64,000 bases of DNA. Source: Candidatus Altarchaeum sp. (lineage in GTDB: Archaea; Altiarchaeota; Altiarchaeia; Altiarchaeales; Altiarchaeaceae). Positions 5,243-25,245 of the stretch are shown one piece after another. Positions within the stretch are counted from its first letter, which is position 1. Each line of letters starts with the position of its first letter. The notes under the pieces are model-generated. The model was not told the origin of the DNA, ran no database searches, and was given only the letters and a program-made list of their open reading frames with translations. A program made the position numbers and the translations under genes. Location of the stretch: assembly GCA_018260615.1 (NCBI GenBank), contig JAGWDQ010000053.1, positions 10,898-74,897 on the forward strand, read 5' to 3'.

Positions 5243-5430
5243 CTTTTTCTTTTTTATATGTAAATTTTTCTTTTTTAATGAGATGAACTTGTGTTATAAC
5301 TTTTTATTTAAACAATTATGAATAAGATAAAAGATTATTGTAACCTATTAGCACATACAAATAAATACATGAAACATAAAAAATAACACACCGAAATTTT
5401 CCTTTTCAACATTTTATCCTGGTGGAATGA

Positions 5431-5920
5431 TTTTTTATCGTACAGGAAAGTTCGTTTTATTATCCTCACACCAAGACACAGTCACCTCGCTATTCACCTC
5501 GCTGTTGTTCGGAGATTTAAAAAAATCTGTTGATTTTTAAAATACTGAAAATCTGTAAGATTTTCAATCTTTAAAAATCTGTTGATTTTTAAATCACCTC
5601 ATTTCATTCGGAGATTTTCAAAACTCTCACCTCGCTGTTGCTCGGAGATTTTCAAAACTTCGCGTTTTGAAAATGCGATTTGAAAATGCTCGGAGATTTT
5701 CAAATCTCTCACCTCGCTCCTGCTCGGAGATTTTCAAAACTTCGCGTTTTGAAAATGCGTTTTGAAAATAAGTTCGCTTCGCTCTCATTTAAAAATGCTA
5801 CAAGCATTTTTAAAGATTGAAAACTTATAGTTTTCAGTATATTTTCAAAATCTTTGCGATTTTGAAAAAGACACAAAGGAGTTATATTCTGTAACTTGGT
5901 GACTTTGTGGCTTTGTGTGA
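5431..5920. repeat. Mosaic intergenic repeat: 33-bp motif plus CTCACAC...TGTGTGA palindrome with nested hairpin repeats
   Basis: Arms ctcacaccaagacac (5465) and ctttgtggctttgtgtga (ending 5920) enclose several cacctcgct..ctcggagattttcaaaa and actgaaaatc..gattttcaatctttaaaaatc units also seen elsewhere in the window. Confidence 0.85.
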
Positions 5921-6772
5921 ATATTCTTCTGATTTTTTTAAAATTTTTTCAATAATCTTTTCCGACCTTGAACCATACTGCATCGCCTTCTTTTTTCTCT
6001 TAACAATAAATTCGGGAACGCCTATATTTTCGGCCAACTTCCTCAATATAAATTTTCTGATAAATTTCTTCCCTTCAACAATATCAATTGTTTCGGCAAA
6101 TTCATCAATATATTCATCACCTTCATCACCTTTCACCTCATAAATTTTAAATTCCATCGGAATGTTCATTGCATAGTCCGAAAAATTTTTCTCCATATAA
6201 GGAAATTTCAGACAAATTTTGTTAAATGCACACATTGCTATGTCCCTGTTCAGATTCTCTTTATAAGCGATGTTTATGTCATTTTTCATCGCAATAAGCC
6301 GTTCATCTTCATTCATTCTTAAATATCTCGCATAGCCGCCAAAAATTTCATCTGCTCCCTGACCGGATAGCATAACTTTTATGCCGTCTTCGCCTGCCTT
6401 TTTTGAAGCAAAGTAAATCGGAACTGCCGTTGATAAATTTAATCTGGTTATTTCAATATTGTTGTCCTTTAAAATTTTGACTATGTTTTCAATTTCATTT
6501 TTGACATCGTTCTCTGTAATAAGGACAATTTTCGTATTCGTCAAATTTAGGGTCTTAAATTTCCGGGCAAAAATGACATCTTCGGATTCATAAGTTCCGA
6601 CGGTATAAGCAGAGACACTGGAAAATTTATTCGCTAACATTGCAATGATCGTTGAATCAATTCCGGCGGAAAATACAACTCCTGTTTTCTTTTCATCGCC
6701 GCTCGCCTGCTTAACTGCATCGTCTAATAAATTTTTTAAATTTAAATGTCTTGGAGCATAATCGTTTTTCAT
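5882..6772 (-). CDS. Asparagine synthase C-terminal (synthetase) domain protein, lacking the glutaminase domain
   Basis: VVFSAGIDST PP-loop, SGQGADEIFGGY, KKKAMQYGS; probable start is ATG 6772 rather than the ORF-track start at 7048. Confidence 0.8.
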   Translation of the reverse strand: MKNDYAPRHLNLKNLLDDAVKQASGDEKKTGVVFSAGIDSTIIAMLANKFSSVSAYTVGTYESEDVIFARKFKTLNLTNTKIVLITENDVKNEIENIVKILKDNNIEITRLNLSTAVPIYFASKKAGEDGIKVMLSGQGADEIFGGYARYLRMNEDERLIAMKNDINIAYKENLNRDIAMCAFNKICLKFPYMEKNFSDYAMNIPMEFKIYEVKGDEGDEYIDEFAETIDIVEGKKFIRKFILRKLAENIGVPEFIVKRKKKAMQYGSRSEKIIEKILKKSEEYSHKATKSPSYRI

Positions 6773-6833
6773 TTTAAATTTTTTGGCATATAACAAATTT
6801 ATTAACAAATTAATTAATTTATACTCTGCTAAA

Positions 6834-7253
6834 ATGTTTAAGAAAGTAGTTGCAGGAGGAACATTCAACAAAATCCACAAAGGACACGAAGATCTGATTA
6901 AGACAACTTTTAATATCGGCGAATATGTGTCCATCGGCTTAACTTCCGACAAATTTGCAAATTTATTCAGGGCTGAAAAGGTTCTGGAATATAAAAAAAG
7001 AGAAAAAAACCTCAAAGAAAAAATTTCCGCTTTAAATTTACACGACAATTATGAAATTTTAAAGATTGATGATATGTATGGAATTGCGACACTTAAAGAA
7101 GACCTGAATGCGATTGTCGTAAGTGAGGAAACACTTCCGAGAGCACAGGAAATAAATGCAATAAGATTTAAAAAAGGGCTGAAACGATTAATAATGGTTG
7201 TGGTTCCGTTTGCATTTAAGAATAACAGGCCGCTTTCGGCAAGTCATTTATAA
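6834..7253 (+). CDS. coaD: Archaeal phosphopantetheine adenylyltransferase
   Basis: VVAGGTFNKIHKGH (HxGH), GLTSD, AIVVSEET; probable start MFKKVV at 6834. Confidence 0.85.
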   Translation: MFKKVVAGGTFNKIHKGHEDLIKTTFNIGEYVSIGLTSDKFANLFRAEKVLEYKKREKNLKEKISALNLHDNYEILKIDDMYGIATLKEDLNAIVVSEETLPRAQEINAIRFKKGLKRLIMVVVPFAFKNNRPLSASHL

Positions 7254-7298
7254 AATATCAAAAATTTTTGTTGCCTGTATTTTGCCTGATTTTGAAAT

Positions 7299-8225
7299 TT
7301 AGTTTTCTTGTTCAGTTATAATTTCGGGTTCCGGATAATCAAAGTCCGGTTTTTCCTCAAATAGTTTCTTTTGTTTGATTACCTCGTTGATTCTTGTCAG
7401 TGCAGTTTCGCAATATTTCTTAGATATGTCTATACCTATAAATCTTCTTTTCAATTTGAAGGCGACTAATGTTGTGGTTCCGGCGCCATTAAACGGATCT
7501 AAAACTATATCTCCTTTGTAAGAAAATAATTTCAAAGCTCTTTTTGGTAGTTCTTCCGGAAACATTGCCGGATGCCCAAAGTCCTTCATTTTCGTCTCAG
7601 GAGTAAATTTCCACTTTGCATAAACACATTCTTTAAATTCTTCACCGGTTATATCAATATGTTCTTTTTTACCTGTTTTTTTATGGGTTTCTTTATCAAA
7701 AATTTCTATAAACTCCCAGGTGTATTTTAAATAAGGCATTGACGGTGATTTCCAGCTTCCCCACGCCGTGTATTTTGCATTATAATTATTTTTTTCCCAT
7801 AATACTTCAGCTTTCCATAAAAAGCCCAAATCAAGTAATTGCTTTGAAATTATATGGTGTGTCGGTACATAATCAGAAAATAACGGCTGGACATTTACTA
7901 TTATTCTTCCGCCGGGTTTTATTATCCTGTAACATTCTTTCCAGACAACAAATAATTTTTTAAAATATTCGTTCCATTCTTTTGTATCCTGTGTTGTATC
8001 GTTTGCATAACTATGACCAAAGTTATAGGGTGGTGAAGTTAATACTATATCTATAGAATTAGATGGAATCTTAGATAGTACCTTTTCAGCATCGCCTACT
8101 ATGATTTTATTGTTCAACTTTTTAATATCCGGATTTTCAACTGAAAAAATATCTTTCTTTTCTTCTTTTGTACCTTTTCTTATCTTCTCTTTTATTCCTT
8201 TATCTTTTATTTTTTCGGGGCTCAT
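7299..8225 (-). CDS. Beta-class DNA methyltransferase (SPPY, probably N4-cytosine)
   Basis: Motif IV TSPPYN, HPAMFP, motif I DPFNGAGTT; overlaps the stop of the upstream endonuclease gene. Confidence 0.9.
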   Translation of the reverse strand: MSPEKIKDKGIKEKIRKGTKEEKKDIFSVENPDIKKLNNKIIVGDAEKVLSKIPSNSIDIVLTSPPYNFGHSYANDTTQDTKEWNEYFKKLFVVWKECYRIIKPGGRIIVNVQPLFSDYVPTHHIISKQLLDLGFLWKAEVLWEKNNYNAKYTAWGSWKSPSMPYLKYTWEFIEIFDKETHKKTGKKEHIDITGEEFKECVYAKWKFTPETKMKDFGHPAMFPEELPKRALKLFSYKGDIVLDPFNGAGTTTLVAFKLKRRFIGIDISKKYCETALTRINEVIKQKKLFEEKPDFDYPEPEIITEQEN

Positions 8226-9045
8226 AATATTTTACCTTCTTTAATAAGTTTTTGTTCTATATTTGACCAGTCCCTTTCTAAGTGATTTCTAACAAATTTG
8301 AAAAGATCTTTTACTACTTCAAAATCTATGGGTTTACTATTCTTACTCTTTCTTTTTTCTTTTCTCAAAACATAAATTTGGTTAATTCTTGAATAAGCAG
8401 GATCAACATCCAAACTCACATCATAACATTCTGTAATCACGAGAAATAAACAATAAGGATTGCCATTTTTTATTTTTTCGGCAGTAGCAATTGAACCCTC
8501 AAGCATTGTTTTATCAATGTATGTTTTGCATTCAATAGAAACAACAGGAACATTAATCAATTTTTGTTCTCCATCCGCTTTTATCAAAATTGTCCGGTAA
8601 ATGGCAAAGTCCTGGTCCTTTTCATTAATCTTCATATTCGGCGTTTTGATGAAGTCCACCAAATTCTCCGGTGCAAAATATAAATTACTGTACGCCCTTG
8701 TGTCACCTAATTGTATTTTTTTAATCTCCTCGCTAAATAATATAAGAATTCTTCCGGGACAGTTGAATGAAATTTAGATTGTGCGGAAAAATCTACATTT
8801 TTAATCTCGTTTTTATAATCATTCAACCACTTGACTCTTTGATTTATCGCATCATCCGAATATTCGGTTAGGATTTCATTATTATTATTCCATTCTTTAT
8901 ATTTTTCAATAACTTTTTGCAGTTGCTTTTTTTGAGTAGTAAACAAAATAGATGATATCTGCAATTTTGCAAGTATGTTTCTTCCATGAATATGAGATTT
9001 GTTTAAATTTTCTTTAAACCAAGCAATTTCTTTTTCCATAGTCAT
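8222..9045 (-). pseudogene. Bpu10I-family type II restriction endonuclease, split by a frameshift near 8707-8740
   Basis: Upstream ORF has FSAQSKFHSTVPEEFLYY; downstream ORF has VPVVSIECKTYIDKTMLEG; the downstream frame stays open back through FSEEIKKIQLGDTRAYSNLYF, overlapping the end of the upstream ORF in the -1 frame. Confidence 0.75.
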
Positions 9046-10586: not shown

Positions 10587-13382
10587 ATGGAAAATACAAC
10601 TAAATTTTTAGATGAACAAATAATTGAATCATGGTCTAATTCAAAAATATTTGAAAGCAATGCAGATAAGAACAAACCAAAATATTTTATTACGGTTCCG
10701 TATCCCTATACATCAGGAGCGTTGCATATCGGACATGCCCGAAGTTATACTTTGGGAGATGTGACGGCAAGATATTACCGGCTGAAGGGTTTCAATGTTC
10801 TGTTTCCAATGGCATTTCATATAACGGGAACTCCTATACTCGCGATAGCAAAAAGAATAGAAAAAAATGACGAAGGAATGCTCAAGATGCACAAGGAATA
10901 TGTTTCTATTTATGAAAAAGACGAAAGCAAAATCAATGAAATAGTTGAATCATTTAAAAATCCGGAAAATCTTGCAAATTATTATGCAGGTGTAATAATT
11001 GCCGATTTTAAAAGAATGGGTTATTGCATTGACTGGCGGAGGAAATTTAACACAGGTGAGAAATTTTACAATAAATTTGTTGAATGGCAATTCAAAAAAC
11101 TCGCAGTTCAAAATTTAATAATCAAGGGAAAGCACGCTGTGTATTTTTGCCCTTCCTGTAACAATCCCGTAACAACCGATGATATAAAAGGCGGCGATGA
11201 ATTAGACATTGAAATGAGTGAATACTATTTGCTCAAAGAAAAACTTGCCGGTGAGGACTGCTATTTGGTTGCCGCAACCTTACGTCCCGAAACAATCTTC
11301 GGTATTACAAATTTATGGGTTAATCCCGAAAAAATTTATGTCAAAGCAAAGGTAAATGACGAGACATGGCTCATTTCAAAAAAAGCAGGCGAAAAATTAA
11401 AAAAACAGGGATTTGAAGTCACCGTTATTGAAGAATTTAAAGGAGAAAATTTGAGCGGCAAAAAAGTAATAATTCCCTTAACAAACAAAGAGGTTGAAAT
11501 TTTAAGAGCAAATTTTGTTGATGACGACACGGCAACAGGGGTTGTAAATTCTGTTCCCGGGCACGCACCTTACGATTATATTGCCTTAAGGGACTTAAAA
11601 ATAAATTTTGAAATTTTAAAAATAATTGACTCAAAGATTAAGATTGAAGAAATTGTTAAAGATATAAAAGACCAAAAGGATGAAGGACTTGAAGAAGCAA
11701 CACAGGAATTATATAAGGATGAATTTTACAACGGAATTATGAATGAAAACTGCGGGGAATTCAGGGGAATGAAAGTGGCGGTTGCCAGAGAAAAGGTTGC
11801 CGAAAAACTTAAATCGCTAAATTTATTAGGCAAAATTTATGAAAATAATATTAAAGACAAGGACGGGAAAATAGTCAAAGCCACATGCCGATGCGGAACG
11901 GAATCTGAAATCAGGGTGCTTGAAGACCAGTGGTTTTTAAATTATGCCGATGAGGGATGGAAAATTTTAGCCCGAAAAATTTTGAAAAACACAGCAATTG
12001 AGCCGGAAATTTATCGGACTGCATTCATTAACTCAATTGAATGGCTTCACGAATGGTCGTGCACAAGAAACAGGGGACTTGGAACGAAATTTCCTTACGA
12101 CAACAAATGGATGATTGAAAGTTTAAGCGACAGCACAATTTACATGGCATTTTACACAATTGCACATTTATTGCGGAATTTGAGCGCTGATGAGTTGGAT
12201 GAGAAATTTTTTGACTATGTGTTTTTAGGTAAGGAGTTTGACGGATGCGAGAAGTATAAGGAAATAAGGGAAACATTTATTTATTACTATCCGATGGATG
12301 AGCGAAGGACAGGAATAGCCCATATTTCAAATCATCTGACATTCAGTTTGTTCCATCACGCAGCAATATTTCCCGAAAATTTGTGGCCAAAAAAATTTTC
12401 CCTGAACGAAATGCTCGTTGCAGAAGGAAAAAAGATGTCAAAATCACTCGGAAATGTGATTCCCATCAAAAACGCATGTGAGAAATTTGGTGCCGATACT
12501 GTCCGATTACATTTGTGTTATGCGGCAGACTCTTCCTCAACCCTTGACTGGAAAGAAAAAGAGGTAATTGCCACTAAAGCAAAGATAGAGGAATTCATAA
12601 ATTTTATAAATTTATTTCAGAATACAAATTCCGCTTGCGAAACAGAAGAAGGTAAAATCAGTGATGTGGACAGATGGCTCATTTCAAAATTTAACAGACA
12701 TTTGGAGGAATTTTTAAATTTAATGGACAAATCCGAAATACGAGAGGCAGTTCAGAAAATTTTCTATGAATTTTTTAATGATATAAAGTGGTATTTGAGG
12801 AGAACAGAACCAAACAAAAAGGTCTTGAAGGAAATTTCCGAACAGTGGGTTAAAGTTATGAGCATATTTATTCCATTTACCTGTGAAGGACTATGGAAAA
12901 AGAGCGGAAAAAGCAATTTTGTCAGTGCAGAGGATTCTTTAAAGGCAGATAAAAATGCAATTAACGAGAATGCTGAAAGTATGGAATTTATGGTAACCGA
13001 ATTGATTGATAATATCCGAAATTTTGCCGAATTAATAGGAAAATACAAAAAGCCGACTAATGTTTTCATTTACTTTGCAGAGGACTGGAAAAGGGAATTG
13101 TTTGCAAAAATTATGGGAGGAAAAAACATAAAAGATGTAATGGCTGATGAAAAATTTAAGAAACATTCAAAGGATGTTGTGGCAATAATGCAAAAGACCC
13201 ATAAAGGCGATATTAAATTTATTCCGACTATTGAAGAAGAAGTTAGAATGACTGGGGAAGCAAAGGAGTTTTTAGAGAAAGAATTAAATTTAAAGATAGA
13301 GATTGATGTTAATGCAGACTACGATCCGAAAGGCACGAGAAAGTTTGCGATGCCATTAAAGCCGGCAATTTATATTGAATAA
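10587..13382 (+). CDS. leuS: Leucine--tRNA ligase, archaeal type
   Basis: PYPYTSGALHIGH (HIGH), ATLRPET editing domain, KKMSKS, archaeal C-terminus KFAMPLKPAIYIE. Confidence 0.97.
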   Translation: MENTTKFLDEQIIESWSNSKIFESNADKNKPKYFITVPYPYTSGALHIGHARSYTLGDVTARYYRLKGFNVLFPMAFHITGTPILAIAKRIEKNDEGMLKMHKEYVSIYEKDESKINEIVESFKNPENLANYYAGVIIADFKRMGYCIDWRRKFNTGEKFYNKFVEWQFKKLAVQNLIIKGKHAVYFCPSCNNPVTTDDIKGGDELDIEMSEYYLLKEKLAGEDCYLVAATLRPETIFGITNLWVNPEKIYVKAKVNDETWLISKKAGEKLKKQGFEVTVIEEFKGENLSGKKVIIPLTNKEVEILRANFVDDDTATGVVNSVPGHAPYDYIALRDLKINFEILKIIDSKIKIEEIVKDIKDQKDEGLEEATQELYKDEFYNGIMNENCGEFRGMKVAVAREKVAEKLKSLNLLGKIYENNIKDKDGKIVKATCRCGTESEIRVLEDQWFLNYADEGWKILARKILKNTAIEPEIYRTAFINSIEWLHEWSCTRNRGLGTKFPYDNKWMIESLSDSTIYMAFYTIAHLLRNLSADELDEKFFDYVFLGKEFDGCEKYKEIRETFIYYYPMDERRTGIAHISNHLTFSLFHHAAIFPENLWPKKFSLNEMLVAEGKKMSKSLGNVIPIKNACEKFGADTVRLHLCYAADSSSTLDWKEKEVIATKAKIEEFINFINLFQNTNSACETEEGKISDVDRWLISKFNRHLEEFLNLMDKSEIREAVQKIFYEFFNDIKWYLRRTEPNKKVLKEISEQWVKVMSIFIPFTCEGLWKKSGKSNFVSAEDSLKADKNAINENAESMEFMVTELIDNIRNFAELIGKYKKPTNVFIYFAEDWKRELFAKIMGGKNIKDVMADEKFKKHSKDVVAIMQKTHKGDIKFIPTIEEEVRMTGEAKEFLEKELNLKIEIDVNADYDPKGTRKFAMPLKPAIYIE

Positions 13383-13387
13383 ACGAG

Positions 13388-13448
13388 CTCACACAAAGAC
13401 ACAGGGACACAAAGATAAGTCATCTGTGACTTTGTGGCTCTGTGTGAG
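13388..13448. repeat. Empty CTCACAC...GTGTGAG palindromic repeat
   Basis: ctcacacaaagacacagggacacaaag, short spacer, ctttgtggctctgtgtgag, directly after the leuS stop. Confidence 0.85.
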
Positions 13449-13517: not shown

Positions 13518-16500
13518 ATGGAGTTACTATTTCCATTTCCGGAAATCCGAAACGGACAAAAAGAACTAATAGATGATATCAAAACCGTGCTTGAAACAGG
13601 AGGCACACTGCTCGCTCACGCTCCAACGGGAATCGGTAAAACAGCAGCCGCCCTGACCCCCTCCCTTGAATATGCCTTAAACAACGACAAAATTGTCTTT
13701 TTTCTTACATCAAAACAATCCCAGCATAAGATTGTAATTGACACGCTGCGGCTTATAAAAGAAAAAAATAAAGATAATGTCAGCTTTTCGGTTGTTGACA
13801 TAATATCCAAGCAGGCAATGTGTCCGAGGGATATTGCACGGGAACATTATGCATTGTTTGATGATCTTTGTCTCCATGACCAGAAAACGAAGAAGTGCAG
13901 ATATTTCAGGAGTGATAAGAACATTACAAACCACATACTGAAGAATATCATGCATGTTGAGGAGCTGAAGGATTTTTGCGCCAGGAATGTAATCTGCCCG
14001 CACAAAACAGCAAGTGATGCGATATCCGATGCCAACATCGTTATATGTGACTACAACTACATGTTCACGGATATTCTTGAAACCGTTCTTGAGAAAACCC
14101 ATAAATCAATCGGTGACCTGATTTTAATCATTGACGAAGCTCATAATCTCCCTGACCGAATAAGAGACCAGCTTTCCGGTGAGCTCACAATAAATCTCAT
14201 TGAAGAAGCAGCGAAGGAAATAAAGTCCGTTGATGAAAAACTTTACAGGTACCTGAAAGGCATTGGCAGGTTTTTTGACGATTTCATCCGACGTATGCCC
14301 GGAAACGCAGAGAAAAACATTAACCGGGAAGATATCACGACAGGAGTTGAGCAGGTACTTCAGGAATCTATTGGCGACAGTATGAGTTACCTTGAGTTTG
14401 TTGATGCCTTAAAAGCGGCAGGAGTTGAGCTTGCTGAAAAAAAGCAGTACGAGGAAAAAAAGAAATCTTCTATAACTTCAGTAATGGAATTTCTTGAGAC
14501 CTGGAACACCCTGCTTCCGTGCTCGCGGGTTTATAAAAACAAGAACACGCCAACGCTTTCGTTTCGGCTTCTTGATCCGTCAGTACTGAGCGAGAGCATA
14601 ATCTCAAACGCTTATGCAACAGTCCTGATGAGCGGAACACTATATCCTGTGGAAATGTACGCTGACATATTGGGGGCAAAGCATTCACTACTTAAGCAAT
14701 ACGAATCACCGTTTCCTTCCGAAAACAAAATTGTTTTGGTGACAAAAAAACTCACCACGCTTTACACCGAGAGGGGTGATTCAATGTATGGCAATATTGC
14801 AGAAAAAATATCAAAAGTCCATGACACAGTTAAAGGGAACATTGCCGTGTTCTTTCCTTCATATTCTCTAATGGATGAAATATACAAAAAATTTGAAAGC
14901 AGCCCCGACTTTGAAATTCGGGACAAAACAGGCGACATCCTCCTTGAGGGGAGGTGCATGAGTAAAGCCGCTAAAGATGAATTATACCGGAAATTAAAAA
15001 TAAATTCAAATAAAATTCTGATGGGCGTGCAGGCAGGTTCTCTTTCAGAAGGCGTTGATTACAGGAACAACATTATTCGCGCGGTATTGATAGTCGGACT
15101 GCCATTGAGTCCGCCAACTCTTGAAGTAAAAAATTTGCAGGATTATTACATTAAGAAATTCGGTAAAGAAAAAGGAACGCTCTACGGATACATATATCCT
15201 GCAATAAGCAAGGTGATACAGGCGGCAGGACGCGGTATCAGGAGCGAAAACGATATCGGAGCGATAATTCTTATGGACTATCGGTTTAATTATCCTATGT
15301 ACAGGAAATGCCTGCCGCCGGATTATAAAATACAGTTTACTGACGAAGCTGAAAAACTGTGCGGGGAATTCTTTGGTAAAGACCTTGTGTTAAAAGCACT
15401 GGAAGATACAAAAAAGAGAGTCATTGAAGAGGAAGACATAAAATTGATGAAAGAAGAAAAACACATCCTTGCAGAATCAAAATCAGAAACAGAATCAAAA
15501 TCAGAAACAGAAAAACAAGAGGTTCAGGATTCAATTCCGGAAATATCAGAAGAAAAAACCGAAAATAACGACAACCCCGGATTAAATGTATTGCGTTTGA
15601 TAGAAACCATAGATTTTCCTGCTGGCAGGTCATTCTTAGCAGGTATACTAACCGGTTCCAAATCAAAGGAATTGATAAATCAGAATATTGATAAATCAGA
15701 ATATTATGGAATGCTGAAAGGATACACTCGCGATGAAGCTATTGATATTATAGACCAGATCACAGGTAAAGGTTATTTGGCAGTTAAGCAGAGTGAAACA
15801 GCAAATTTTCCGAGACCTGTTTTATATCTGACAGAGTTAGGTAAAAACGCATTGTGTAATAATGAGAAAATTGGAGTGAAATTGCCAATAAAAATAAACC
15901 TTAAAAATAGGGTTGAAACATCCAAGAATCCTGAATTATTAAATGAATTAAAATTTTGGCGTAGAAAAGTTGCCGAAGAAGAAAACATCCCGGCATATTG
16001 CATTTTCCATGATACAACACTAATTGAAATTTCAAATAGCACGCCTTTCACAAAAGAAAATTTAATGAATATTCGTGGATTTGGTGAAAAAAGAATTGAA
16101 AAATACGGGGATGCTGTGCTGGAAATTGTGAAAAAGTATGTATCAAATGTTGTTTCTGAGAGCAATGTAAAAGAAAATCAGGAAAAAGAGCAGAAAGAAG
16201 CAGAAGGACCACCAGTAAATTCCAAAATGGAATCATCTGAAAAATTAATACATGATAACAATTTAACAATGGATAGAATCAACGCAGAACATAAACTAAA
16301 AGAAATATTTGGACACGGGCATTTTTACGACACACAATGGGAAACCATTAAAAAAATTTTAAATGGTGAAAGGGTTTTATTAATAGAAAAAACCGGCTTT
16401 GGAAAATCATTGTGTTATCAGTTTCCTGCAACTCAGTTTGAAGGAACCACCGTTATTTTTTCTCCGTTAATTGCATTAATGCGCGATCAGGTTAAAAAAC

Positions 16501-18284
16501 TCAGTGAATTAGGAATCAAAGCCAAATGTATAAACAGTGAACAGACACCCGAAGAAAATTCTGAAATAATTGAAGAAGCCAAACAGAATAAGATAAAAAT
16601 CCTCTACATCGCCCCTGAAAGACAGGAAAATACCGAATGGATTGATGCCGCAAGACAAATGAATTTGTCAATGGTGGTTATTGATGAAGCACACTGCATT
16701 TCGGTCTGGGGGCATGACTTCAGACCGTCCTTCAAAAGAATAATCAATCTCGTAAACCTTTTGCCCGAAAATTTTCCAGTTCTGGCAACAACCGCAACCG
16801 CTACAAAAAGAGTTGAAGAGGATATACTTGAACAGATTGGCGGCAGGATAATTTCTCTAAGAGGAAATCTTTTAAGAGAAAATTTTTATTTAAGAGTAAT
16901 CAGGGTTGAATCGGATGATGAAAAGTTAGTATGGGTGGGTGAAAATATAAATTTAATTCAGGGCAGCGGTATTATTTATACTGGCACCAGAACAAATACC
17001 GAAATTTATTCAAGGTGGCTGCAGTCATTGGGCGTTTCATCTGTTGCATATAATGCAGGTCTGGATGCCGAATCAAGAAAACATATAGAGCAGGGTTTAA
17101 TGAACAATACATGGAAATGTGTTGTTTCTACTAACGCTCTGGGAATGGGAATTGATAAACCGGACATTCGTTTTATTATTCATACGCAAATTCCTGCTTC
17201 GCCAATACACTATTACCAGGAAATCGGGAGAGCCGGAAGAGACGGAAAACCAACAGAGATAATTCTTCTTTATAGTCCCAAAGATACAGACCTGCCAAAA
17301 TCGTTTATTGAAAATAGCAGGCCTTCAACAGATAAATATCAGCGATTCATTGATGCATTAAAATCAGAACCGTTAGGTGAACAGGATATTATGCGGAAGA
17401 CAAATCTAAATCAAACACAGGTCAGGGTTATTAAAGCTGACTTAATTGATCAGAAAATCATCAATGATGTCTATTATAATAAAAGTAAAAAATGCGAACT
17501 CAAAGTAAATGCACCGGAATTAAATTTTCATTCCTTTGAAGAACTTATAAAGACAAAATTTGCCGAATTATATCAGATGGTAGCATACTCAGAAACCACC
17601 GGGTGCAGAATGAAATTTCTTTGTGATTATTTGGGTGATATCCTAGAAAAAGATTGTGGGAAATGCGATAATGACCGGACAGAACATATCTGTGTAAAGT
17701 TAACTGATTACTGGAATAATAAAACTGAAGAATTCAATAATAATTATTTTCCTGAATTGTCTGTAGAATCCAAAGGAACTAATATGGTTGACGGGGTCGC
17801 GGCTTCATATTATGGATTTTCAAATGTCGGCTCGGTGATCCACAGATGTAAATATGAAAACGGGGGTGATTTTCCGGATTTCCTGTTAAAACAAACACTG
17901 AAAGCATTTAGAAAAAAAATTAGTAAAGATAAATTTGATTTGCTTGTTTATGTTCCTCCTACGGAGTCAGGTGATTTGGTTAAAAATTTTGCTGAAAAGA
18001 TTTCTTACGCCTTAAAGATTCCTGTTTCCCACAAACTCAAAAAAATAAGGGCTATAAAACCACAAAAGATTTTTCAAAACAGTATTTTAAAAAGAGATAA
18101 TGTAAAAGATGCATTTGAGTATGAACATCCGGGGGATATTGAAGGAAAGTCAATTCTGATAGTGGACGATATATTTGACAGCGGACACACCATAAAAGAA
18201 ATTGGCAGATATTTTACTAAATTTGGGGCGGTAAAAATAGCTCCTTTAACAATAGCTAAAACAATCGGAGGTGATTTATCATGA
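13518..18284 (+). CDS. Fusion protein: XPD/Rad3 Fe-S helicase + RQC + HRDC + RecQ helicase + ComF-like phosphoribosyltransferase
   Basis: APTGIGKT, Cys cluster, DEAH, QAAGRGIR (XPD); RQC and HRDC signatures; KTGFGKSLCYQ, DEAHCISVWGHDFRP, QEIGRAGRDG, CGKCD (RecQ); ILIVDDIFDSGHT (PRTase). Confidence 0.85.
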   Translation: MELLFPFPEIRNGQKELIDDIKTVLETGGTLLAHAPTGIGKTAAALTPSLEYALNNDKIVFFLTSKQSQHKIVIDTLRLIKEKNKDNVSFSVVDIISKQAMCPRDIAREHYALFDDLCLHDQKTKKCRYFRSDKNITNHILKNIMHVEELKDFCARNVICPHKTASDAISDANIVICDYNYMFTDILETVLEKTHKSIGDLILIIDEAHNLPDRIRDQLSGELTINLIEEAAKEIKSVDEKLYRYLKGIGRFFDDFIRRMPGNAEKNINREDITTGVEQVLQESIGDSMSYLEFVDALKAAGVELAEKKQYEEKKKSSITSVMEFLETWNTLLPCSRVYKNKNTPTLSFRLLDPSVLSESIISNAYATVLMSGTLYPVEMYADILGAKHSLLKQYESPFPSENKIVLVTKKLTTLYTERGDSMYGNIAEKISKVHDTVKGNIAVFFPSYSLMDEIYKKFESSPDFEIRDKTGDILLEGRCMSKAAKDELYRKLKINSNKILMGVQAGSLSEGVDYRNNIIRAVLIVGLPLSPPTLEVKNLQDYYIKKFGKEKGTLYGYIYPAISKVIQAAGRGIRSENDIGAIILMDYRFNYPMYRKCLPPDYKIQFTDEAEKLCGEFFGKDLVLKALEDTKKRVIEEEDIKLMKEEKHILAESKSETESKSETEKQEVQDSIPEISEEKTENNDNPGLNVLRLIETIDFPAGRSFLAGILTGSKSKELINQNIDKSEYYGMLKGYTRDEAIDIIDQITGKGYLAVKQSETANFPRPVLYLTELGKNALCNNEKIGVKLPIKINLKNRVETSKNPELLNELKFWRRKVAEEENIPAYCIFHDTTLIEISNSTPFTKENLMNIRGFGEKRIEKYGDAVLEIVKKYVSNVVSESNVKENQEKEQKEAEGPPVNSKMESSEKLIHDNNLTMDRINAEHKLKEIFGHGHFYDTQWETIKKILNGERVLLIEKTGFGKSLCYQFPATQFEGTTVIFSPLIALMRDQVKKLSELGIKAKCINSEQTPEENSEIIEEAKQNKIKILYIAPERQENTEWIDAARQMNLSMVVIDEAHCISVWGHDFRPSFKRIINLVNLLPENFPVLATTATATKRVEEDILEQIGGRIISLRGNLLRENFYLRVIRVESDDEKLVWVGENINLIQGSGIIYTGTRTNTEIYSRWLQSLGVSSVAYNAGLDAESRKHIEQGLMNNTWKCVVSTNALGMGIDKPDIRFIIHTQIPASPIHYYQEIGRAGRDGKPTEIILLYSPKDTDLPKSFIENSRPSTDKYQRFIDALKSEPLGEQDIMRKTNLNQTQVRVIKADLIDQKIINDVYYNKSKKCELKVNAPELNFHSFEELIKTKFAELYQMVAYSETTGCRMKFLCDYLGDILEKDCGKCDNDRTEHICVKLTDYWNNKTEEFNNNYFPELSVESKGTNMVDGVAASYYGFSNVGSVIHRCKYENGGDFPDFLLKQTLKAFRKKISKDKFDLLVYVPPTESGDLVKNFAEKISYALKIPVSHKLKKIRAIKPQKIFQNSILKRDNVKDAFEYEHPGDIEGKSILIVDDIFDSGHTIKEIGRYFTKFGAVKIAPLTIAKTIGGDLS

Positions 18285-19234
18285 TTAACAGACCGGAAAT
18301 ACCCTGCCTGATGGCATTAACCCACACCCAGGGATGGAAATATGAACAAATTAATAACATCATCGCAAAAATTAAAGGTAATTCAAAATGCAGCATTGCA
18401 GAATTCTTTGGTTTATCTCCTGATAACTGGATGGATAATTTCGGATTAAGCAAAAAAGAAACACTCCATTTGGAAAATGTTAAAAAAGAAATACCCAAAT
18501 ACTCTTTTCTGGCAGAAGATTTATTTGCGCAGGGATATGAAATAATACCTGTAAATTCTCCTGAATATCCTGAAACATTAAAACAAAATTTAGGATTCAG
18601 GTCACCACCCATTCTTTATGTGAAAGGAAATAAAAATTTATTAAAAGAAAAATCTGTCGCAATTGTTGGCTCAAGGGACGCATCGGAAATTGCATTGAAA
18701 TTTACTGACAACATCGCAATGCTAGCGTCAGGAGAACACAAAGTCGTAGTAAGCGGATTTGCCAGAGGTGTAGATAGGCAGGCACTGGACTCCGCACTTA
18801 AATATAAAGGTAAAGGTCTTATTGTATTGCCGCAGGGAATAATGACTTTTTATTCTGGATTTAAGGCATATTACAGACAAATTGTTGAAGGAAATGTTCT
18901 GGTCTTAAGCACATTTTTTCCAAAAGCACCGTGGAGTGTGGAACTAGCAATGGCAAGGAATTCTGTAATATATGGTCTGGCAGGAGAAATTTATGTGGCG
19001 GAATCGAATGAAACAGGCGGAACATGGTCGGGAGTCATGGATGGCATGAGAAAGGGAAGAAAGATATATATCAGAAAACCCGAACCGTATGAAAATAATG
19101 CAAATAATAAATTAATGGACATAGGAGTTATTCCTGTCAGCTTTGAGGGACAGCCAGTTTTAGGATATAAATCATTGTCCCCTGAAATTTACCTGGTTAA
19201 AGAAAAACATGAAAAAATAAGTAAGCTGATGTGA
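18281..19234 (+). CDS. dprA: DNA-processing protein DprA/Smf family
   Basis: YPETL..PPILYVKGN, VAIVGSR, VVSGFARGVD, ARNSVIYGL, GGTWSG; ATGA overlap with the upstream gene. Confidence 0.9.
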   Translation: MINRPEIPCLMALTHTQGWKYEQINNIIAKIKGNSKCSIAEFFGLSPDNWMDNFGLSKKETLHLENVKKEIPKYSFLAEDLFAQGYEIIPVNSPEYPETLKQNLGFRSPPILYVKGNKNLLKEKSVAIVGSRDASEIALKFTDNIAMLASGEHKVVVSGFARGVDRQALDSALKYKGKGLIVLPQGIMTFYSGFKAYYRQIVEGNVLVLSTFFPKAPWSVELAMARNSVIYGLAGEIYVAESNETGGTWSGVMDGMRKGRKIYIRKPEPYENNANNKLMDIGVIPVSFEGQPVLGYKSLSPEIYLVKEKHEKISKLM

Positions 19235-19388
19235 GACGATGATTAAGAAGAATAAATTAATTAAATCTTTTAAATATAATTATCCTGAAATTTTTAATTT
19301 ATTATTTATTTAAATTTAAAAACATAAATTTAATACAAAATTTAATACAAAATTTAATACAAATTTAACAAATTTAACTAAATTTCAA

Positions 19389-20519
19389 ATGTACGCATTT
19401 ATCGGTATCGGACAGGGCGGCTGCGGATTACTTGATTCCGCATTTTATGACAAGGACTTATTCAAGGTAGTAAAACCAATAGCAATAAATTCCACTGCCA
19501 AGGATTTGAAAAATTTAAAGAATATAAAACCACAATACTGGCTTGGAATGAGTAAGGATAAGGGATTTATTGACGGAACGACAAAAAATTTAGAAAGTTA
19601 TTTAGTTGGCGGATACGGACAGGACAGAACAAAATCAAAAGACGACGCCGAAAGACAATATTCCGATTTACAGGAAAAAATAAGATACTATCTTGAAACA
19701 CGAACGGCAAAGGGAAAAGAAATGGCAGTCCAGTTTGCATTTTTGATGACATCCCTTGGCGGAGGAACCGGAAGCGGATTAAGTCCGGCAATTGCAAAAA
19801 TTTTAAAGGATTTGGGAATATGTGTAATTGCCGTTCTGATTACTCCTGCAAAAAGCGAGGGCTCACTGACTGCAAAAAATGCCGTTGAGGCATTGAATGA
19901 AATTTATAATTATGCTGACTCAATAATCCTCGCAAGTAATGAAAAAATTTCCTATGCCCAGAATATAGAAGCACTATTTTCCCACTATAATGATTACATA
20001 GCAAGAAGTTTGGTTGATATTTGTGAAGGAATGACACTTGAACAGATTGACCCGGCAAAATTTGAAGGAAACCCGCCTGTAATAGATATGAAGGACTTCA
20101 TTACCGCAACTTCATTTCTTGATACCCATAAGCCCGGATTTTCAGTTATAGGAAGGGCAAGCGACAATGTCAGGGATATGCTGCATTATATTTTTCCGGT
20201 CGGGGGCTATAAAGAGATTGATGCCATTGGTTTGATTCAGCAGGCGATGCTTAAATTATCTGCCGACATTGATGATAATGCCAGGAAAAATTTATGCTTA
20301 CTCCGCCTTCCGCACAGGTATTTAACATCCGAAAGCAGAATGATAAATACAGAGGTTGTGAGAAATTTCCTGCTTGAGAAAACAGAGTTGAACGAAACAC
20401 ATTTTGGAATATCCTTAACAAAAAGAAATTTAGCAACTGCAACATTGATTTCATGCCATTCCAAAAAGCCAAGGGATTTTGAAATGCTTGAAGAATCAGC
20501 GGAGAAATATAAGGGATAA
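19389..20519 (+). CDS. Tubulin/FtsZ-superfamily GTPase, CetZ-like or divergent
   Basis: N-terminal GIGQGG, AINST, tubulin signature GGGTGSG; no recognisable FtsZ C-terminal tail. Confidence 0.8.
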   Translation: MYAFIGIGQGGCGLLDSAFYDKDLFKVVKPIAINSTAKDLKNLKNIKPQYWLGMSKDKGFIDGTTKNLESYLVGGYGQDRTKSKDDAERQYSDLQEKIRYYLETRTAKGKEMAVQFAFLMTSLGGGTGSGLSPAIAKILKDLGICVIAVLITPAKSEGSLTAKNAVEALNEIYNYADSIILASNEKISYAQNIEALFSHYNDYIARSLVDICEGMTLEQIDPAKFEGNPPVIDMKDFITATSFLDTHKPGFSVIGRASDNVRDMLHYIFPVGGYKEIDAIGLIQQAMLKLSADIDDNARKNLCLLRLPHRYLTSESRMINTEVVRNFLLEKTELNETHFGISLTKRNLATATLISCHSKKPRDFEMLEESAEKYKG

Positions 20520-20560: not shown

Positions 20561-20616
20561 CTCACACGGAGACACGGAGACACAAAGGGGAAATACACTC
20601 TGTGACTTTGTGTGAG
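20561..20616. repeat. Empty CTCACAC...GTGTGAG palindromic repeat between convergent genes
   Basis: ctcacacggagacacggagacacaaag ... ctctgtgactttgtgtgag. Confidence 0.85.
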
Positions 20617-20623
20617 CATTCTT

Positions 20624-23040: not shown

Positions 23041-25245
23041 AACATGGATTTATACTTTCTTAAATAACATAACAAAAAATACATTGTAATGTAATAATTA
23101 TAGCTTCTGATTAGATTTTTAATTTTGTTCAAATAAAGTGTGTATAAGTTATTTCTTTTATAAAATATTATATTTGGTAGAATATCCTCCTCAATAATTA
23201 GTTATTCATCAAAGAATGTATTATTTGAATTCTATAAATTTTATTATTAATAGTTGATTCCTTTTTTCTTGAAAATAGTATTTAATTACATCTTTTTTTT
23301 AGAAATTACAAAAAATCTATAAAACTTTTTATTTTTAAGTATGTAAATGTAATATAATAATACAAAAATAAATTCTTAAATAAATAACAAAAATAAAATG
23401 AATTCCGAAACGAAAAAATAGATAAAGAATTGTTAAATGCTGTGGACTTGAATGAGATTGCCGAAGGGAATGAGGAGCACACAACCTTATTAGATATAGC
23501 AATGAGAAGAATATCCCTCAAAGAAGGGGCAAAACAATTAAATATTAGATATGGTGCTATCAGAGGAAGGATTTACAGAATTAAACATCGTAGCGACAAA
23601 TCAAAACCTTACAGTAAAAAACCAGGACCAAAATCAAGATATAAGATATCAGAACACAAAGATCTGATAAGAGAATATAGGAAAAAAGGCTTAACTTCAG
23701 AAGAGATAAGTAATGTGTTGAGGGAAACTATCAATGTAGATATATCTTCAATCACTATCGGCAGATTTTTAAGTGAAGAAGGATTCCTTAGACAGTACAA
23801 TAGAACCTCACGACAAAAAGAAGATACACTAATGGACATTAAAGATATCATCATAAGTTACAAAACAAAATATCATCATAAGTTACAAAACAAAAAATAG
23901 AAAAGACATTAATCAACTGATTAGGGACAAATTCGAGTCATTGTATGCAGGACTCGGTATATTCATGGCATTAATTGAAGAGTTGAATATCTTAAAAATA
24001 ATAAGAGATTCATACTTATCTAATGCAAGACTGATAGAAAGTTATGTTCTAACCATTCTCGGTTTAAAGCTTATCCAGAAGAAAAGACGTTCAGATATAG
24101 AATACTTAAGTGAGGAAGAAATGATTGCTTTATTCAGTGGCAGAGATAAAGTTTTGAGTTGCACGGCTTTGCACAGATTCGATTATGATATGAGAAAAGA
24201 CATGATGGAGAAAATGAAAATAATCTACATTCAAGTGTTAAGGAAATACCTAGATATGAGTGTGCTTAACATAGATTTCCATATAATCCCACATTTTGGA
24301 GAATCTGATGTGCTTGAAATTAATCACGTCTCTTCCAGAGGAAAGAATATGAAAGGGGCATTGGTTTTTCTTGTGCAAGATAGGGAAAGTAAAATATTCT
24401 CATACAGTCATGCAAATATAAAAAGAAGCGAAGCAAGTGATGAAACCATAAAGTTTTTAGAAAAAATTGAAAAGATAAAAATAAAACCAGAATGGCTGGT
24501 TATCGATTCAAAAGTGACCAAATACAAAAATATAGCAAAGATAAAGGCACGGGGAGTTGATGTAGTCACTATACGGCGTAGGGGTGAGAAGATGATCGAA
24601 GAGGTCGAGAATGCAAAAAAGGATCCAAACGTCTGGACAACAGTAAGAATTAAACGCACAAAAGGAGGATGGGAAAAAATAAAGGTTTGGACAAAAACGA
24701 TAACTGTTGGTTATCGCGACGATGACAAAAAGTGAAAAAAAATAAAAATGCGGCAATTAGCAGTTATCAATAGTCACGAAAAGCCGATGTTCATAATAAC
24801 CACGGATTTCAAACATTCTATAAAAGATATTGTTGAAATGTATCCTCCTCGCTGGTTAATAGAACTTGGAATAAAAACACAGACAAAATTTTTTGATCTT
24901 AATCAATTAGCATCCGACCTTGATGTAAAAATGGATTTCGATACTTTTTTAACACAAATCGCACATATGCTTTATCAGATACTGGCAAAAAATTTATATT
25001 GTCATGAAAATTCGGAGCCTGAAAAAATATATCAAAAATTTATTGAAGGCGCTGGAAAAATAAATGTATATGATGATAAAGTGGTTGTACGGTTAAAGAA
25101 GAAAAGATCAACGGGTTATTTGATTAATGCACCTATTTTAGAGGGGTGGGTTGATGGAGGAAAAAATATCTCGTGGTTAGGAAAGAAACTAGAGATTATC
25201 TGGGAATAAAATGTTATGGAAATTATGAAAGTATAAATCCATGTT
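23041..25245 (+). mobile_element. Insertion sequence with 19-bp terminal inverted repeats
   Basis: aacatggatttatactttc at 23041-23059 and its exact reverse complement gaaagtataaatccatgtt at 25227-25245 bracket transposase fragments. Confidence 0.85.
23398..25209 (+). pseudogene. HTH + DDE transposase pseudogene (IS4-superfamily-like; exact family not assigned)
   Basis: HTH ORF 23430-23900, catalytic ORFs with IDFH / VIDS / YPPRWLIE; 25-bp tandem duplication at 23845-23894 and in-frame TGA at 24733-24735 split the gene. Confidence 0.8.

Follow-up and report, generated by a model that had tools for sequence, protein, structure and literature searches.

An XPD-RQC-HRDC helicase gene in frame with a PsyrTA toxin-antitoxin cassette in the assembled genome of an uncultivated Altarchaeum

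PsyrTA and RqlHI are two names for one toxin-antitoxin system, in which a phosphoribosyltransferase (PRTase)-bearing toxin is paired with a DprA-like antitoxin and which was later tied to phage resistance (10.1101/2022.05.11.491447). The genotoxic activity of E. coli F11 RqlH has been mapped to the PRTase domain and RqlI counteracts it; the region of D663, the acidic loop that binds phosphoribosyl pyrophosphate (PRPP), is required for toxicity (PMC4670107). RqlH of M. smegmatis is a 3'-5' helicase without HRDC (PMC3378886), and the toxicity of ShosT depends on PRPP binding (PMC12961424). The present analysis concerns a locus in which a toxin of this type, PsyrT, shares one open reading frame with an XPD-type helicase and is followed by the DprA-like partner, PsyrA. 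The locus lies in a 64,000-nt stretch of DNA (the window) on contig C53 of G000, a metagenome-assembled genome (MAG) of an uncultivated groundwater Candidatus Altarchaeum, comprising 148 contigs at 87% completeness.

The two halves of the 1588-residue frame

The frame at 13518..18284 (+) encodes 1588 aa with zero internal stops, and its domains follow in the order XPD (iron-sulphur, Fe-S) helicase, RQC, HRDC, RecQ-like helicase and PRTase. All nine Pfam matches are above gathering score (Table 1). The catalytic motifs of both superfamily 2 (SF2) helicase motors are intact, and both halves are under purifying selection, with ratios of non-synonymous to synonymous divergence (dN/dS) of 0.14-0.25. 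The initial annotation had described a single 1588-aa frame with two SF2 helicases and a PRTase, its stop codon overlapped by dprA, and the frame, the Pfam matches and the ATGA overlap all bear this out. The fusion was seen in one MAG only and is known from assembled sequence. The explanation favoured here, at a probability of roughly 0.7, is a strain-specific read-through fusion between two normally separate genes, a resident XPD-RQC-HRDC gene and the PsyrT gene, with PsyrA coupled to the latter.

The C half was matched by the PADLOC PsyrT profile (PDLC03928) with an E-value of 1.4e-267, residues 920-1586 falling on positions 5-688 of 689, and it scored 340 bits with recQ_fam (cut-off 220). 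The acidic PRPP-binding loop of the PRTase is intact (VDDIFDSGHT-type, residues 1549-1558). The ATG of PsyrA overlaps the TGA of PsyrT by 4 nt (ATGA), with a Shine-Dalgarno-like GGAGGTGA shortly upstream, and an identical 4-nt overlap is found in the related genome G003; PsyrA is thus predicted to be translationally coupled to the toxin frame. The dN/dS values were 0.14 for PsyrT and 0.25 for PsyrA. Of the 398-position PsyrA profile just positions 37-292 are covered, and the window PsyrA appears to be without the profile's C-terminal part. Apart from longer natural variants, PsyrT toxins are stand-alone proteins of ~670-690 aa; here the toxin is the C half of the 1588-aa frame, and it stands alone in the relatives G003, P0285 and P0286. 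By homology, from which its function is also predicted, the cassette is PsyrTA (RqlHI), a known system already described as a toxin-antitoxin pair acting against phages.

Three other labels for parts of the frame were considered and rejected. A canonical RecQ does not fit the C half, which scored 487 bits with TIGR01389 against a cut-off of 640 and 381 with PRK11057 against 1015, the RQC and HRDC domains lying upstream and belonging to the XPD gene. The best matches to DpdF cover mainly the RecQ core, and dpd genes are absent from the neighbourhood. The CasDinG (type IV CRISPR) model matches the generic XPD core, and cas genes are likewise absent from the neighbourhood.

The XPD part scored 264 bits with TIGR00604 rad3 (cut-off 247) and shows the features by which the XPD/Rad3 group is recognized, namely DEAD_2 with 4Fe-4S cysteines, Arch, Helicase_C_2, Walker A and DEAH. 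The Fe-S cysteines C102, C118, C127, C154 and C160, the Walker A motif (GIGKT) and the DEAH box are invariant in an alignment with six XPD relatives, and the best solved relatives of the core are 9kqh_A ('DNA 5'-3' helicase') and T. acidophilum XPD 4a15. Unwinding with 5'-3' polarity is predicted for this part from family membership alone. Since G000 also encodes a canonical XPD of 666 aa (contig C44, 42% identity to the window XPD), the window gene is a paralogue. An exact 18-nt duplication (15472-15489 = 15490-15507) lies in the acidic linker that separates the XPD core from RQC, and in the place of this linker G003 carries an additional copy of RQC.

RQC and HRDC do stand before the RecQ core, as the initial annotation had it; both are domains of the XPD gene and not of the RecQ-PRTase gene. 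The RQC-HRDC of the window is 85% identical to that of the gene in G001 (Ca. Altarchaeum sp. GA_1_1), which is free of the cassette, and ~60% identical to that of P0016; the idea that RQC-HRDC arrived together with PsyrT was rejected on the former value. RQC is kept in G001 and duplicated in G003 and in P0007 (A. hamiconexum). Only the last ~14 HRDC codons, from ~16089, are of the cassette-linked allele type. The XPD-RQC-HRDC gene is flanked by leuS and a tubulin/CetZ-like gene in G000, G001 and G003; in G021, of another family, an XPD-RQC gene is located near a leuS-like gene, and XPD-RQC paralogues also occur in other families without PsyrT. The C-terminal array varies in size: the G001 protein has 874 aa and the G003 protein, with its two RQC copies, 1000 aa, and in A. 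hamiconexum a form with RQC and HRDC each in two copies (1106 aa) occurs next to a 1216-aa variant. There are also relatives to which HTH_40, HEAT or an N-terminal DuOB domain has been added. The label of the protein in public records is simply 'DEAD/DEAH box helicase', and a literature search found no paper on XPD or DinG helicases carrying HRDC. The architecture itself, an XPD paralogue with variable RQC/HRDC copy number in Altiarchaeota, looks undescribed.

The junction and the PsyrTA insert

G001 aligns with the window in blastn until 16130 and resumes at 19312, and in its genome the CetZ-like gene directly follows the XPD-RQC-HRDC gene without PsyrTA. In G003 the helicase gene stops at a TAG, which is followed by an 89-nt spacer with more stops and then by the PsyrT start. 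Relative to this arrangement the window differs by several substitutions, lacks 27 nt including the TAG and carries 1 nt extra, and owing to these two length changes the spacer is in frame with both genes. Among the 19 codons of the resulting linker that can be aligned with G003, 7 non-synonymous differences and 1 synonymous were counted (pN/pS, the ratio of non-synonymous to synonymous differences per site, ~1.5). The linker shows no sign of purifying selection and would be an unconstrained former spacer; the chance expectation of an open stretch of 32 codons at the local base composition is ~8%.

Both halves have close stand-alone counterparts, P0003 (877 aa) for the N half, at 97% identity, and P0285 (685 aa) for the C half, at 96%; the identity of the C half to the PsyrT gene of G003 is 89%. 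P0286, with 17 member sequences, is another stand-alone PsyrT, of 687 aa. The junctions of P0003, P0004, P0008, P0016 and P0285 were compared as protein ends only. The initial annotation had left room for the fusion being an accident of one strain, with the halves encoded separately in related genomes, and this is largely what was found: the sampled relatives are split, and P0003 and P0285 are stand-alone proteins. Its internal RecQ start at ATG 16269 coincides with the point where the bacterial homologues begin, whereas the gene calls of G003 and P0285 use the ATG equivalent to 16227. In the C-terminal alignment of the N half, G000 follows P0003 with few substitutions to ~residue 857 and then takes the ending common to G003 and P0004, and the A. 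hamiconexum N-half cluster also has the G003-type ending. This switch of allele at ~residue 857 places a probable recombination boundary near window position 16089. A second junction variant on another contig was looked for in G000 and none was found.

The following sequence of events can be proposed. A horizontally acquired PsyrTA, an insert of ~3.2 kb, would have come to sit directly 3' of the XPD gene, and a 27-nt deletion removing the stop, together with the 1-nt difference, would then have brought the ~90-nt spacer in frame. From studies of E. coli RqlHI and of PsyrTA/ShosTA one would expect a genotoxic PRTase domain that is bound and restrained by PsyrA and is released upon infection. 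The fusion may be tolerated because PsyrT naturally accepts many N-terminal extensions, the XPD-RQC-HRDC part being carried as N-terminal cargo, and translation starting at the internal ATG 16227 or 16269 could still yield free PsyrT.

A strong PsyrT match was present in 3/61 genomes of the class (G000, G002 and G003), and one more match was weak (35%). The close homologues of PsyrT that carry a name (66-70% identity) come from bacteria, namely KSB1, Ignavibacterium, Calditrichaeota, Bacteroidetes and Smithella. Acquisition of PsyrTA by the genus Altarchaeum through horizontal transfer from bacteria is most likely, and the cassette or its neighbourhood has probably moved between G002 and the window. 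Target-site duplications and terminal direct or inverted repeats were looked for at the cassette ends and none were found. The spacer ahead of the helicase gene and the one behind the CetZ-like gene share an 18-nt inverted repeat (94% complementary; 13387-13404 and 20600-20617) and a 14-nt direct repeat (13423-13436 and 20599-20612); as conserved genes too are bracketed by these repeats, they are not marks of the PsyrTA insert.

In metagenomes, 80 loci were recovered with the junction query, all of them (80/80) with a RecQ-like core. The RecQ core, PRTase and DprA-like gene were adjacent in ~65/80 at ~38-72% identity, the remainder being mostly cut by contig ends. In some metagenomic PsyrT an HRDC domain follows the PRTase, just before PsyrA (L105, 7001-9586, 861 aa; L090, L107, L108, L128 and L129). 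The association with HRDC appears to recur at either end of PsyrT.

Weighing the explanations

No second XPD+PsyrT protein was found in the two large protein searches, which agrees with the view of the initial annotation that the architecture is not known from described proteins. In the word-indexed search of a 5.8-billion-protein collection (proteins of 873-2779 aa) coverage of the fusion was at most 60% and no XPD+PsyrT protein was obtained, and an exhaustive HMMER search with residues 430-1588, run on 1.84 billion representatives, gave no protein among its best 150 matches in which PsyrT occurs together with the XPD C-lobe. The genome-contig scan gave only G001 and distant bacterial DinG genes; in the metagenome scan the Altarchaeum junction was not found, all loci being PsyrTA of the bacterial type. 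Long relatives of PsyrT carry N-terminal RQC-HRDC, HEAT, TPR, LRR, HhH or pentapeptide extensions (TPR and LRR according to precomputed domain lists), and none of these relatives has a second helicase. One family of ~890 aa (P0009/P0023) has the order RQC, HRDC, PsyrT, P0009 being 54% identical over query residues 691-1587. The RQC-HRDC of this family is only ~30-40% identical to that of the window, which indicates that the two arrangements arose independently.

Several observations temper the favoured explanation. In P0004, whose N half is 85% identical to that of the window, the same spacer frame is open for ~41 codons and stops at the PsyrT start. P0008, with a PsyrT of 80% identity, bears an in-frame N-terminal HRDC of the XPD-gene type and HEAT, and this HRDC-HEAT part closely resembles the tail of the XPD-family protein P0016. 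Taken together, P0004 and P0008 imply that read-through at the junction may be recurrent or even ancestral. The presence of RQC-HRDC before PsyrT in the ~890-aa family hints that these domains are useful to PsyrT. Toxicity, neutralisation and phage protection are known for bacterial PsyrTA members only. The window's own protein was absent from the entries returned by the word-indexed search.

The fusion could be an artefact of assembly or sequencing present in the MAG consensus only, the real genome keeping a stop or frameshift in the former spacer. This is unlikely. A MAG in 148 contigs and 87% complete leaves some room for it, as do the separate products 96-97% identical to each half, and from a P0004-like allele a very small change beside the PsyrT ATG would suffice for the fusion; the allele switch near residue 857 could also reflect a mixture of strains. 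However, a strain switch within HRDC cannot alter the frame, and the difference from G003 is more than one homopolymer slip, since 27 nt are cleanly deleted and a 1-nt indel is accompanied by several substitutions. Moreover, the alternative junction was not found on a second contig of the MAG, and the flanking synteny is colinear with G001 and G003. The 'Rosetta stone' reading, by which the XPD-RQC-HRDC protein is the DNA-sensing partner of PsyrT in a three-gene defence operon of Altarchaeum, and the fused form unites two motors of opposite polarity, one RQC-HRDC module and the PRTase toxin, is rather improbable. If it were true, the recurrent RQC-HRDC or HRDC before PsyrT, the P0004 tail and P0008 would reflect one functional need. 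It is quite improbable that the fusion is a selected dual-motor enzyme, in which XPD (5'-3') and the RecQ-like motor (3'-5') share RQC-HRDC and work jointly as a bipolar helicase, sensing or processing invading DNA and delivering the PRTase toxin, in a real partnership of XPD-RQC-HRDC with PsyrTA. In G000 and G003 the XPD gene and PsyrT have the same orientation and lie tightly side by side, the P0004 tail abuts the PsyrT start, P0008 and the P0009 family set HRDC or RQC-HRDC before PsyrT, and both halves combine intact catalytic motifs with purifying selection. Against this stand a fusion confined to a single MAG and a neutrally evolving linker, the persistence of XPD-RQC-HRDC without PsyrTA in G001 and of XPD-RQC paralogues in PsyrT-less families, the absence of an XPD gene from the flanks of the PsyrTA metagenome loci (0/80) and the independent origins suggested by the low identity to the RQC-HRDC-PsyrT family.

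A bipolar helicase for incoming DNA, as put forward in the initial annotation, is possible but unsupported; because relatives encode the halves separately, the idea rests on one MAG and an unconstrained linker. The joining in frame of a RecQ-PRTase/DprA cassette to an XPD-RQC-HRDC gene, also proposed there, stands, but the comparison of the cassette with a competence pair gives way to PsyrTA/RqlHI. A competence or DNA-uptake module, with a ComFA/ComFC-like helicase-PRTase and DprA serving natural transformation, is very improbable. The likeness of the domains to ComF and DprA, discussed in PMC4670107, is set against scores of 103 bits with TIGR00732 dprA (cut-off 191) and 39 with TIGR00201 comF (cut-off 234), against the end-to-end match of the PsyrT profile, accompanied by a match of PsyrA, and against the patchy, accessory distribution. 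Nothing indicates selection for the fused form and, given one MAG, an unconstrained linker and split relatives, the locus is weak as evidence for a new system.

Neighbourhood, significance and comparison with known systems

The coordinates of the features are collected in Table 1. The neighbours in the window include leuS, dapA, restriction-modification genes, the CetZ-like gene and a glycosyl-transferase/phosphorylase-like gene. The upstream restriction-modification genes (2357-9045, -) encode an Eco57I/MmeI-like fused methylase of 961 aa, an N6/N4 DNA methylase and a Bpu10I-like endonuclease, the last seemingly split over two open reading frames (8222-8662 and 8707-9045). The spacer between PsyrA and the CetZ-like gene contains a 12-nt unit in ~3 tandem copies (19326-19366), and open reading frames without a Pfam match are located in 23430-25209 (e.g. 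23941-24735). In G002, a third Altarchaeum species (L015 = G002:C21, 1-5596), the genes after PsyrA encode a TPR/metallo-beta-lactamase-fold protein and 3-dehydroquinate synthase II (DHQS) in place of the CetZ-like gene; upstream, the locus is truncated by the end of the contig.

Table 1. Positions of the features at the locus and of the corresponding genes in relatives.
Feature	Position	Strand	Basis or remark
leuS (leucyl-tRNA synthetase), conserved left neighbour	10587..13382	+	Pfam tRNA-synt_1 + Anticodon_1; syntenic in G001, G003
XPD/Rad3-type Fe-S helicase core	13518..15380	+	residues 1 to ~620; DEAD_2, HBB, Helicase_C_2
Acidic/serine low-complexity linker	15381..15584	+	18-nt tandem repeat; without alignment to G003
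RQC winged-helix domain of XPD gene	15585..15887	+	PF09382, 49 bits
HRDC domain of XPD gene	15933..16130	+	PF00570, 69 bits; matches E. coli RecQ HRDC 1wud
Former intergenic spacer, now in-frame linker	16131..16226	+	G001 homology ends 16130; G003 spacer here
PsyrTA insertion/deletion relative to cassette-free G001 locus	16131..19311	+	blastn; ~3.2 kb
PsyrT/RqlH toxin	16227..18284	+	RecQ-like helicase, Zn-binding domain, PRTase; alternative start ATG 16269
PsyrA/RqlI antitoxin, DprA-like	18281..19234	+	317 aa; PsyrA PDLC03927 E 6.7e-74; DNA_processg_A 133 bits
Tubulin/CetZ-like GTPase, conserved right neighbour	19389..20519	+	PF00091; dN/dS 0.05
DEAD_2	residues 67-224		1588-aa protein, Pfam
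HBB/Arch	residues 278-418		1588-aa protein, Pfam
Helicase_C_2	residues 433-600		1588-aa protein, Pfam
RQC	residues 690-790		1588-aa protein, Pfam
HRDC	residues 806-871		1588-aa protein, Pfam
DEAD	residues 938-1100		1588-aa protein, Pfam
Helicase_C	residues 1147-1243		1588-aa protein, Pfam
RecQ_Zn_bind	residues 1344-1386		1588-aa protein, Pfam
Pribosyltran	residues 1491-1574		1588-aa protein, Pfam
XPD-RQC-HRDC gene in a relative	L013:7379-10381	-	window copy 13518-16130
XPD-RQC-HRDC gene in a relative	L014:1350-3974	-	window copy 13518-16130

If the junction is real, the fusion would be the sole protein found in the searched databases that joins an XPD-type to a RecQ-type motor. It would then offer a natural construct to ask whether PsyrT needs DNA recognition of the RQC/HRDC type, which is absent in canonical RqlH, and what amount of N-terminal cargo is tolerated by the toxin. 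More solid is what the locus documents otherwise: a toxin-antitoxin pair for defence has passed from bacteria into Altiarchaeota, the presence or absence of PsyrTA at one chromosomal slot is polymorphic, and Altiarchaeota possess an apparently undescribed XPD paralogue in which the copy number of RQC and HRDC varies.

The Fe-S domain, Arch (HBB) and two RecA lobes are shared with the XPD of the archaea T. acidophilum (4a15/2vsf) and S. acidocaldarius (3crv) and with the solved 9kqh_A; unlike these, the window protein derives from a paralogue bearing RecQ-type RQC and HRDC, variable in copy number (874-1216 aa in Altarchaeum). The P0009/P0023 and P0008 (HRDC-HEAT-PsyrT) variants resemble it in that PsyrT is preceded by RQC-HRDC or HRDC in one polypeptide with a linker of similar length. 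They are without the XPD motor. The RQC-HRDC of the window is native to the XPD gene. M. smegmatis RqlH (PMC3378886), with proven 3'-5' translocase and helicase activity, shares the layout that defines the clade, with ATPase, linker, Zn domain and ComF-like PRTase; it is a 691-aa monomer, and the window protein instead adds RQC and HRDC N-terminally in cis, plus a second motor. ShosTA follows the same toxin-antitoxin logic with homologous domains, but ShosT is without a helicase, and the matches of the window proteins to ShosA (E 2e-33) and ShosT (E 2e-7) are weaker, the PsyrT and PsyrA profiles fitting them far better. The closest described systems are P. syringae PsyrTA and E. coli F11 RqlH-RqlI, with which the locus shares the RecQ-like core, the tetracysteine Zn domain, the PRTase with a VDD..SG PRPP loop and an overlapping downstream PsyrA, its order and coupling as in the ~65 complete metagenome loci. 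It differs from them in a toxin without a stop-delimited start, in the ~900 residues of XPD-RQC-HRDC fused to its N terminus and in its archaeal host.

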